Made by a program: the position numbers and the translations under genes
Sequence record: PQ438393.1
DNA from: Escherichia phage vB_Eco_J-01
Direction: 5' to 3' (one strand)
DNA: 64,000 bases
Part shown: piece by piece, positions 25,681 through 26,343 of the stretch
Layout: each line of letters begins with the position of its first letter
Position numbering within the stretch: the stretch's first letter is position 1
The notes under the pieces: generated by a model
The model's input: the letters and a program-made list of their open reading frames with translations, nothing else
Database searches by the model: none
Told to the model about the DNA's origin: nothing

Positions 25681-26343
25681 ATGAAGTTTGTACTATATCA
25701 TCGACTTTCTAAGAAGAAACAACAAGGCAACCAGTATGGTATAGAATCACAGGAAGCAGATATTCAACGCTTCCTGGATTCACAAGAAAATTATACTATT
25801 GTAGGTAGCTTTGCAGAGTTTTATTCTGGTAAAGGCGATTGGAAGCAACGTAGAGAGCTTGTAAAAGCTGTTAATCTTTGCAAAGAAACAGGTGCTACAC
25901 TTGTTGTTGCTAAGGTTGACCGTCTTGGACGTAATACAGCCTCTGTTGCAACCTTGTTAGAGATGATTAATGTACGAATAGCCACTATGCCCTCCGCTGA
26001 AAATATGATAATAAATATTTTAGCAGTTCTGGCAGAAGAAGAGGCTCGTGCAATATCTGATCGTGTTAAGAAGAGCCTTAAAGTAGCAAAAGCGAAGGGA
26101 ACGCTTCTTGGTGCAGCAAACCCTAAATACAAAAGAACAGATTATACGAAAACGGAAGAAGCAAAACGCTCAAAAGAGTTTGCGCTTTCTTTAAAAGATT
26201 CTTTAGTTGCATACAGAGCTTGTAAAACGCCATATATGACGATTGCAAAACATCTGAATGAATCAGGAAAGAGAACTATTCGTGGGAGTTTGTTCGATGC
26301 CAAAGCGGTACAACGTCTTTGTGCAAAATTGAATATTAAATAA
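25681..26343 (+). CDS. serine recombinase (resolvase/invertase family)
   Basis: Catalytic N-terminus YHRLSKKKQ and VVAKVDRLGRN. Confidence 0.65.
   Translation: MKFVLYHRLSKKKQQGNQYGIESQEADIQRFLDSQENYTIVGSFAEFYSGKGDWKQRRELVKAVNLCKETGATLVVAKVDRLGRNTASVATLLEMINVRIATMPSAENMIINILAVLAEEEARAISDRVKKSLKVAKAKGTLLGAANPKYKRTDYTKTEEAKRSKEFALSLKDSLVAYRACKTPYMTIAKHLNESGKRTIRGSLFDAKAVQRLCAKLNIK

Follow-up and report, generated by a model that had tools for sequence, protein, structure and literature searches.

Large serine integrases are proteins of about 400-700 amino acids (aa), in which a zinc ribbon and a coiled coil define the selection of attachment (att) sites. In gamma-delta resolvase, the catalytic set comprises R8, S10, D36, R45, D67, R68, R71, E118, and R125, the serine lying in a Y-x-R-x-S motif, and the Mpi recombinase of Bacteroides flips promoter-carrying segments. 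When a serine recombinase flips DNA conservatively, no sequence is gained or lost and the flanks stay identical. A stretch of 64,000 nucleotides (nt) of Escherichia phage vB_Eco_J-01 (PQ438393.1), referred to here as the window, carries on its plus strand, at 25681..26343, an open reading frame (ORF), gp053, that starts with ATG and encodes 220 aa. Judged from its sequence and predicted structure, the product is almost certainly a catalytically competent small serine site-specific recombinase, in which an integrase-like core of the TP901-1/Bxb1 type and a helix E are joined to the first sub-domain of the Recombinase domain. As modelled, gp053 is a 'mini' integrase-type serine recombinase without zinc ribbon or coiled coil.

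The ATG is preceded by an AGGAGG Shine-Dalgarno sequence, and the protein contains YHRLSKKKQ at residues 6-14, with S10 as the presumptive nucleophile, and VVAKVDRLGRN at residues 75-85. Residues 4-141 match the Pfam family Resolvase (PF00239) with E=8.4e-22 and 78.3 bits (cut-off 23.3), the sole Pfam match at E<=1, and the PHROG_125 'DNA invertase' profile is matched at E=1.3e-31. Among PDB sequences, HMMER recovers Sin, the Tn3 and gamma-delta resolvases, and, weakly (E about 1e-3), Gin. The match to serine recombinases is far above chance, and the ORF, both motifs, and the Pfam, PHROG, and PDB matches confirm the first-pass annotation of this DNA, which had recognised a small serine recombinase with resolvase/invertase motifs. 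The window, 98-99.5% identical to phi92-like genomes, belongs to a virulent myovirus of the genus Justusliebigvirus (Stephanstirmvirinae), whose type phage is phi92 (148.6 kb), and the 4.5 kb around the gene are 98.5-99.5% identical to 55 Justusliebigvirus records. The protein is 100% identical over 220 aa to Phi92_gp053 (YP_009012384.1), whose RefSeq product name is 'DNA invertase'; the public labels, which also include 'recombinase family protein' and often 'hypothetical protein', all derive from homology. The gene is already known and annotated, and its product is an ordinary kind of enzyme; no functional study of gp053 was found in the literature.

In an alignment of 28 relatives sharing 30-88% identity, residues Y6, R8, S10, E46, G50, R57, D80, R81, R84, E121, and R128 are invariant or at least 90% conserved. 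By comparison with gamma-delta resolvase alignments, with residues equated to the gamma-delta numbering by eye from HMMER alignments, these positions would correspond to the nucleophile and the Arg/Asp/Glu constellation. The AlphaFold (AF2) model, with a mean predicted local distance difference test (pLDDT) score of 86.7, adopts a resolvase fold. The catalytic domain and the long helix E (aa 1-138) are encoded at 25681..26094 on the plus strand, with the S10 codon at 25708-25710. Helix E, 31 residues long (108-138), is followed in the model by a low-confidence linker and then by four short helices (159-170, 172-180, 185-194, and 207-216; pLDDT 81-94), which form a predicted C-terminal DNA-binding domain (aa 159-216; 26155..26328, plus strand) resembling the first sub-domain of the 'Recombinase' domain of large serine recombinases. 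The top full-length Foldseek match is the large serine integrase of Bxb1 (E=4.5e-7, 247 columns), and the PhiC31 and SPbeta-type (YokA) integrases align over 240-290 columns, past helix E. When the 28 relatives were scanned singly, 19 matched PF07508 'Recombinase' (best E=3e-7), whereas gp053 of the window itself has no such match at E<=1; HTH_7, the Hin/resolvase-type family, is not among the Pfam families listed for these relatives. Full-length NCBIfam matches to CcrB, Mpi, and YneB all fall far below threshold. The chain ends at residue 220, and both zinc ribbon and coiled coil are absent.

Since the catalytic domain and the DNA-binding fragment are closest to those of large serine integrases, gp053 might be a cryptic integrase that occasionally inserts the phage into its host, with hidden temperate or pseudolysogenic behavior. 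Such a role is extremely improbable and already largely refuted: at 220 aa against more than 400, the protein has neither zinc ribbon nor coiled coil, and megablast of window positions 22000-30000 against 5,426 complete E. coli genomes gave no match and no prophage copy. In addition, phi92-like and Phapecoctavirus phages are reported to be strictly lytic, without prophage matches (PMC10282059, PMC5374246).

The two halves of the protein evolve at different rates. In 27/27 relatives, conservation is lower in the C-terminal domain than in the catalytic core (mean identity 34% vs 60%), and between Justusliebigvirus and Phapecoctavirus, both of which infect E. coli, the C-terminal domain shares only ~39% identity. 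Fast divergence of this domain is expected if the recognised DNA co-evolves with each phage lineage, which argues for a target on phage DNA. A non-rearranging reaction at a single site is suggested by four absences described above and below, namely of a second copy of the upstream region, of a palindrome family, of a clean inversion, and of prophage copies. We therefore tentatively favor an early, conservative recombination at a single-copy site on phage DNA, of the resolution or monomerisation type rather than inversion. Under this proposal, gp053 would be made early, as a self-contained and insulated unit, and would recombine a site on the phage's own DNA, probably present once per genome, that co-evolves with the fast-diverging C-terminal domain. 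Copies of this one site on concatemers or sister genomes would then recombine with each other, as in resolution/monomerisation or in a Cre-loxP-like manner, and such a single-site reaction would leave no rearrangement in assembled genomes.

One relative shows an apparent natural domain swap. In Klebsiella phage 05F01, the syntenic gene (LC483177 129776-130447), located directly upstream of the phosphatase gene, encodes a 223-aa protein whose residues 5-158 match Gin (PDB 4m6f) at E=3e-21 and whose last ~95 residues share about two-thirds identity with gp053. By its sequence, the 05F01 recombinase is a natural chimera, in which the catalytic module appears to have been replaced by a Gin-like one and the gp053-type tail kept. 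The swap implies that catalysis and the gp053-type DNA-binding specificity are both likely to be selected.

Searches for recombination sites returned no candidates. Zero matches to a degenerate gix/hix consensus were found with up to three mismatches, and no pair of ~26-bp gix/hix-type sites in inverted orientation was found around a segment. No inverted repeats flank a segment in the window, where the longest ones either form terminator hairpins or match by chance, or in phi92 46-135 kb, which holds the structural and replication modules; the earlier remark that no inverted-repeat sites are visible near the gene thus holds under computed repeat and gix/hix searches. A second copy of the gp053 upstream region is absent from about 150 kb, and the ~64-kb window contains no family of even-symmetric palindromes. 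Next to gp053, no multi-subsite res was found, the 57-bp gap holding a promoter-like element and no repeated binding motifs. Colinearity was screened by megablast of successive 18-25 kb pieces (window 1-25000 and 25001-50000; phi92 46-68, 68-90, and 90-115 kb) against a phage collection with ~55 Justusliebigvirus records, and phi92 115.5-135 kb was compared locally with four genomes. Each of the ~55 records gave one colinear place per screened piece, save where record ends fall inside the query, and no segment occurred in both orientations between flanks that were otherwise identical. All 55 relatives are colinear across the entire tail and tail-fibre module (phi92 68-90 kb), with only the endosialidase gene swapped. 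A tail-fibre or host-range switch of the Mu G/P1 C type was rejected on the grounds of this colinear tail module and the lack of flanking inverted repeats; to the extent that assemblies can reveal it, a host-range switch of this kind is excluded. We take gp053 to be neither a tail-fibre/host-range inversion switch nor an integrase.

Only one inversion polymorphism was found among about 55 relatives. It spans ~0.9 kb at window 62812-63737 (core 62817-63631), corresponding to phi92 NC_023693 131090-132189. Local blastn places the core on the opposite strand in alia, A145, the VEcB-like OZ035773, and phi92, and colinear in PD211; when the strand of the core is compared with that of each record's flanks, 23 records are oriented like the window and 32 like phi92. 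The inverted core contains two small genes (homologs of phi92 gp214 and gp216), a divergent promoter region, and the start of gp217 (15 codons). Genomes arranged like phi92 encode gp217 as a single 183-aa gene, whereas in the window it is split into a 59-aa N-terminal ORF (63587-63766, plus strand) and a 112-aa C-terminal ORF (62375-62713, minus strand), the latter with its own ATG, a ribosome-binding site (RBS), and an upstream promoter/RBS cassette of ~100 bp that is absent from the other arrangement.

This polymorphism gives the inversion idea its most concrete form: gp053 could be an invertase that flips the ~0.9-kb segment 62817-63631, toggling gp217 between its intact 183-aa and split forms. 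Several features fit, as the segment is the sole inversion polymorphism among the relatives, occurs commonly in both orientations, and carries promoters like the Bacteroides Mpi targets, and the 05F01 homolog has a Gin-type invertase catalytic domain. Moreover, core identity between orientation classes (97.8-98.8% for A145/phi92, 98.4% for inny) is as high as within a class. The junctions, however, are non-conservative: the core is flanked by unequal stretches of diverged or unique sequence (424+121 bp in the window type vs 489+23 bp in A145), in addition to the ~100-bp cassette. The breakpoints lack an inverted repeat; the only 12-nt one lies away from them and is no more than chance would give. 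Over the left flank, identity is 87% to genomes of the opposite orientation and 98% to the one sharing the orientation, and in 12/12 genomes inspected (5 with split and 7 with intact gp217) orientation is tied to its own junction/flank haplotype. Since a conservative flip would alter neither sequence content nor flanks, yet both differ, the 872-bp inversion was rejected as a recombinase product, and we conclude that it is an old, fixed rearrangement in a highly mosaic region; past action of a recombinase at pseudo-sites may have contributed. An invertase role for gp053 at this segment is accordingly very unlikely. The DNA inversion switch suggested by the first-pass annotation thus finds no counterpart in gix/hix sites, flanking repeats, or the ~55 colinear genomes, and the sole inversion is non-conservative. 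Resolution of replication multimers, another role raised there, may still apply, though no site for it was found.

The distribution of the gene speaks to its retention. Homologs occur in 161 phage records by tblastn, including 55/55 Justusliebigvirus records at 99-100% protein identity. Klebsiella phage FKP3 carries a syntenic homolog of 78% identity, Phapecoctavirus phages (phAPEC8, ESCO5, and others) carry homologs of ~57% identity to gp053, and more distant homologs are found in 130-140 kb Vibrio and Shewanella phages and in Cellulophaga phages. In a search of 5.8 billion proteins, the relatives with long contigs all lie on contigs of 135-157 kb, and three distant metagenomic relatives lie in virulent-phage contexts, adjoining genes for NAMPT/PRPP synthase, rIIB, DNA ligase, PhoH, ClpP, or a P22-type portal. 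Between the window and phi92 the gene shows 5 nucleotide differences, all synonymous, and the codon comparison with FKP3 gives 85 synonymous and 49 non-synonymous differences. On the combined weight of its presence in all 55 records, the synonymous-only changes relative to phi92, the synteny in FKP3 and 05F01, and its occurrence in Phapecoctavirus, gp053 is, as far as sequences can tell, a vertically inherited gene under purifying selection in Stephanstirmvirinae, strictly virulent myoviruses of about 148 kb that end in short direct repeats, and no recent passenger.

A different reading would make gp053 a selfish or dispensable passenger, either a moron-like promoter and gene cassette or the relic of a mobile element, with no role in the life cycle. 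It would suit a seemingly autonomous cassette with its own predicted promoter and insulation, neighbors that differ between genera, and the frameshifted copy in Escherichia phage Schickermooser. Set against these are the near-invariance of the protein across all 55 records and the synonymous-only changes already described, catalytic residues that are kept family-wide, and the 05F01 catalytic module, which was replaced and not lost; nor is any transposase, inverted end, or target duplication found alongside gp053. Such a passenger is therefore improbable, and the possibility raised earlier that the gene is cargo of a former mobile element finds no support, given the same 55/55 presence at 99-100% identity, synonymous-only divergence from phi92, and synteny in FKP3 and 05F01. 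The Schickermooser homolog itself (NC_048196 ~11280-11955), annotated as a fragment of 128 aa, is interrupted in the N-terminal half by several frameshifts, which may reflect pseudogene decay or sequencing error.

In the window, gp053 sits in a co-directional block downstream of ribonucleotide reductase and dTDP-rhamnose genes. Upstream lie an HslV-like peptidase gene, an N6-adenine methyltransferase gene, and two small ORFs, and downstream a 67-aa ORF, a tRNA-synthetase-like ORF, and a NinI-like phosphatase gene, also co-directional; together with the Justusliebigvirus match, these neighbors bear out the 'lytic-phage metabolic block' of the first reading. The 67-aa ORF, gp052 (26353..26556, plus strand), starts 10 nt past the gp053 stop and is common to phi92-like phages and FKP3; in 05F01 the corresponding position holds an ORF of 67 aa, matched by size only. 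By eye, the ORFs downstream of the recombinase in ESCO5 and VPMCC14 show no evident similarity to gp052. As a conserved partner ORF or directionality factor gp052 was rejected, being evident only in phi92-like phages and FKP3, and its link to the recombinase is doubtful.

Within tightly packed co-directional operons, the recombinase ORF is preceded by a gap of 57-82 bp in 7/7 divergent phage contexts (the window, FKP3, ESCO5, VPMCC14, and three metagenomic contigs), 57 bp in the window. All seven gaps contain a TTGAC[A/T/C] box, 53-64 nt ahead of the recombinase ATG, in most of them followed 16-17 nt downstream by a -10-like hexamer, and an eighth context, 05F01, also has TTGACA upstream; the GTAGTGCATACT element is conserved between the window and FKP3. 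The window's candidate sigma70-type promoter, TTGACT-N17-CATACT at 25627..25655 on the plus strand, has 9/12 matches in the scan. Because a single-genome promoter scan is not significant in such AT-rich DNA (20 sites found vs 18.4 expected), the prediction of a gene-specific promoter draws on recurrence across lineages. A leader hairpin (CUUCCUGU...ACAGGAGG; 25644..25682, plus strand) is predicted by RNA folding, with its 3' arm pairing the Shine-Dalgarno sequence. In the window it is weak (-16.9 kcal/mol, z=-1.8), whereas strongly non-random folds are predicted for the leaders of FKP3, VPMCC14, P0073, and 05F01 (z -3.3 to -5.0, with 0/200 shuffles as stable); P0052 gives z=-1.6, and no hairpin is seen in ESCO5 (z=-0.5). 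In most hairpins the 3' arm spans the Shine-Dalgarno sequence, and in VPMCC14 and P0073 a U-run follows the stem and the -10 element falls in the loop. These upstream inverted repeats were rejected as crossover sites and are read as leader or terminator structures, given that their sequence differs between genera, the 3' arm covers the Shine-Dalgarno sequence, and the RNA folds into a hairpin. From these features, the gene is probably expressed early from its own host-type promoter and shielded from upstream read-through by the leader hairpin.

Early expression would also suit a host-directed enzyme, made right after infection and acting on the chromosome or on resident mobile elements in takeover or anti-defence. 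This view draws on the predicted host-type promoter in every context, the location in early or auxiliary-metabolic gene blocks, and the failure to detect target sites in the phage genome. It is harder to reconcile with a DNA-binding domain that diverges much faster than the catalytic domain, and the ~39% C-terminal identity between two E. coli-infecting genera makes a shared, conserved host site unlikely. Host-directed action ranks next after single-site recombination of phage DNA, and is itself unlikely.

The single-site reading has to be set against the structure of the genome ends. Phage BME3 has 342-bp direct terminal repeats as determined by PhageTerm (PMC12210895), and Stephanstirmvirinae in general end in direct terminal repeats (PMC12695924). 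The BME3 repeat maps to window 46024-46365 with 95.9% identity, which would place the physical genome ends there; many GenBank records of Justusliebigvirus start at window ~46438, just right of the terminal repeat. A search for a Cre/lox-like site inside the direct terminal repeat gave no candidate. Several points weigh against an early single-site reaction on phage DNA. The terminal repeat lies about 20 kb from the gp053 gene and contains no obvious even-symmetric palindrome or crossover site, and Cre/loxP-like cyclisation has no positive support. Concatemer formation normally needs no site-specific recombinase in phages with direct terminal repeats, and concatemer resolution would oppose packaging unless expression were confined to the early phase. 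The 'single site' is itself an argument from absence, no recombination site having been found, and the promoter, its timing, and the function of the hairpin are all predictions. Related phages may manage without the gene, as rV5 and PVP-SE1 are not among the tblastn matches listed for gp053. Finally, the sole published statement on the role of gp053 is a guess made without a test (PMC10282059).

Other repeats in the window were considered separately. A 19-bp palindrome, AATGAKAATSATTMTCATT, occurs in 7 copies (46149-46167, 46344-46362, 47295-47313, 57758-57776, 57799-57817, 57828-57846, and 57851-57869) against 0.02 expected. The right boundary of the terminal repeat falls 3 nt beyond the end of one copy, and the first nucleotides of the ESCO5 record are a copy. 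It is unlikely to be a recombinase site, as its odd 9-1-9 symmetry misfits a 2-bp staggered cut, and was set aside; it is very close to the E. coli Fur-box consensus, and its possible functions are those of a host Fur operator or of a terminus/packaging signal. The last four copies, which form a cluster, are directly followed by three direct repeats of ~70 nt in tandem (AAATTGAACTTTTCATTTT...AAACTTTAAATAA; 57889-58094), within a long AT-rich intergenic region that may be an origin/iteron or other regulatory region. On the minus strand of window 48800-56860, where mosaicism is highest in the genome (2-5 blast 'places' for each relative), terminator and promoter cassettes (GGCGGGAAACCATTTCCCGCC, then a TTGACA-N17-TAAAGT-type promoter) are repeated between small early genes.

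Some database entries deserve comment. Two papers state that ESCO5 encodes no recombinase (PMC5374246, PMC10269720); ESCO5 gp033 (NC_047776 10017-10688), a 'hypothetical protein' in RefSeq, is a full-length homolog of 57% identity with all catalytic residues. The records MG065639, MG065645, MG065656, and MG065689 ('Campylobacter phage' A150, A145, C3, and A110a) are ~98-99% identical to E. coli Justusliebigvirus genomes in the regions compared, and the two inspected, including MG065645, are marked UNVERIFIED; the Campylobacter host attribution looks doubtful. Core genes of relatives carry insertions that resemble mobile elements: in phi92, gp074 (3205-3861) is an HNH endonuclease ORF between nrdA and nrdB, and nrdD is annotated as spliced; PaulScherrer and SD2 have an 'intein-containing DNA polymerase precursor'.

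Collectively, it is possible, if on balance doubtful, that mini recombinases derived from large serine integrases form a core, self-promoted early gene of strictly virulent phages with direct terminal repeats and serve an undescribed lytic step, either single-site recombination of phage DNA (cyclisation or monomerisation) or targeted rearrangement of host DNA, with a co-evolving DNA-binding module and an exchangeable catalytic module, the latter suggested by the Gin-like swap in 05F01. Recombinase and integrase genes are screened as a safety criterion in phages such as phi92, phAPEC8/ESCO5, those of the BASEL collection, and therapy candidates; on present evidence, with no prophage copies and no integrase domains, gp053 is no lysogeny module. 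The retention of a nearly invariant recombinase, catalytically intact by sequence, in strictly lytic phages is unexplained, and its site, if found, would reveal a new step of lytic replication or a host-directed function. The compact build of gp053, which combines an integrase-like core with one small DNA-binding domain in naturally swappable modules, could also interest recombinase engineers.

Among known systems, the large serine integrases (TP901-1, Bxb1, PhiC31, and SPbeta SprA/YokA) are more than twice the size of gp053, which lacks the rest of their Recombinase domain, the zinc ribbon, and the coiled coil, and for which neither a prophage state nor att sites were found. The Hin/Gin/Cin/Pin invertases belong to the same superfamily and size class, include phage-encoded members, and lend gp053 its name; nevertheless, its similarity to Gin is weak (E about 1e-3), its tail is not a Hin-type helix-turn-helix, and neither gix/hix-like sites nor an invertible tail-fibre segment is found around it. 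The Tn3, gamma-delta, and Sin resolvases share the catalytic fold and residues with gp053, but a three-subsite res and a transposase or plasmid context are missing here and the DNA-binding domain is different; a gp053 binding site over its own promoter, analogous to res/tnpR autoregulation, would be speculative. P1 Cre-loxP offers a functional analogy, being a phage-encoded recombinase with a single site per genome that cyclises or monomerises DNA and leaves no trace in assemblies. Cre belongs to the tyrosine recombinases, and P1 is a temperate phage that packages by the headful, whereas 342-bp direct repeats form the termini here and the search for a lox-like site gave none. By the NCBIfam cut-offs, gp053 is no member of the Bacteroides Mpi family (NF009949; 33.5 vs 272 bits) or of the Bacillus YneB family (NF049883; 29.8 vs 175 bits). 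Nonetheless, these profiles align over residues 6-196 and 3-193, respectively, which suggests that gp053 has the same two-domain layout of ~200 aa.

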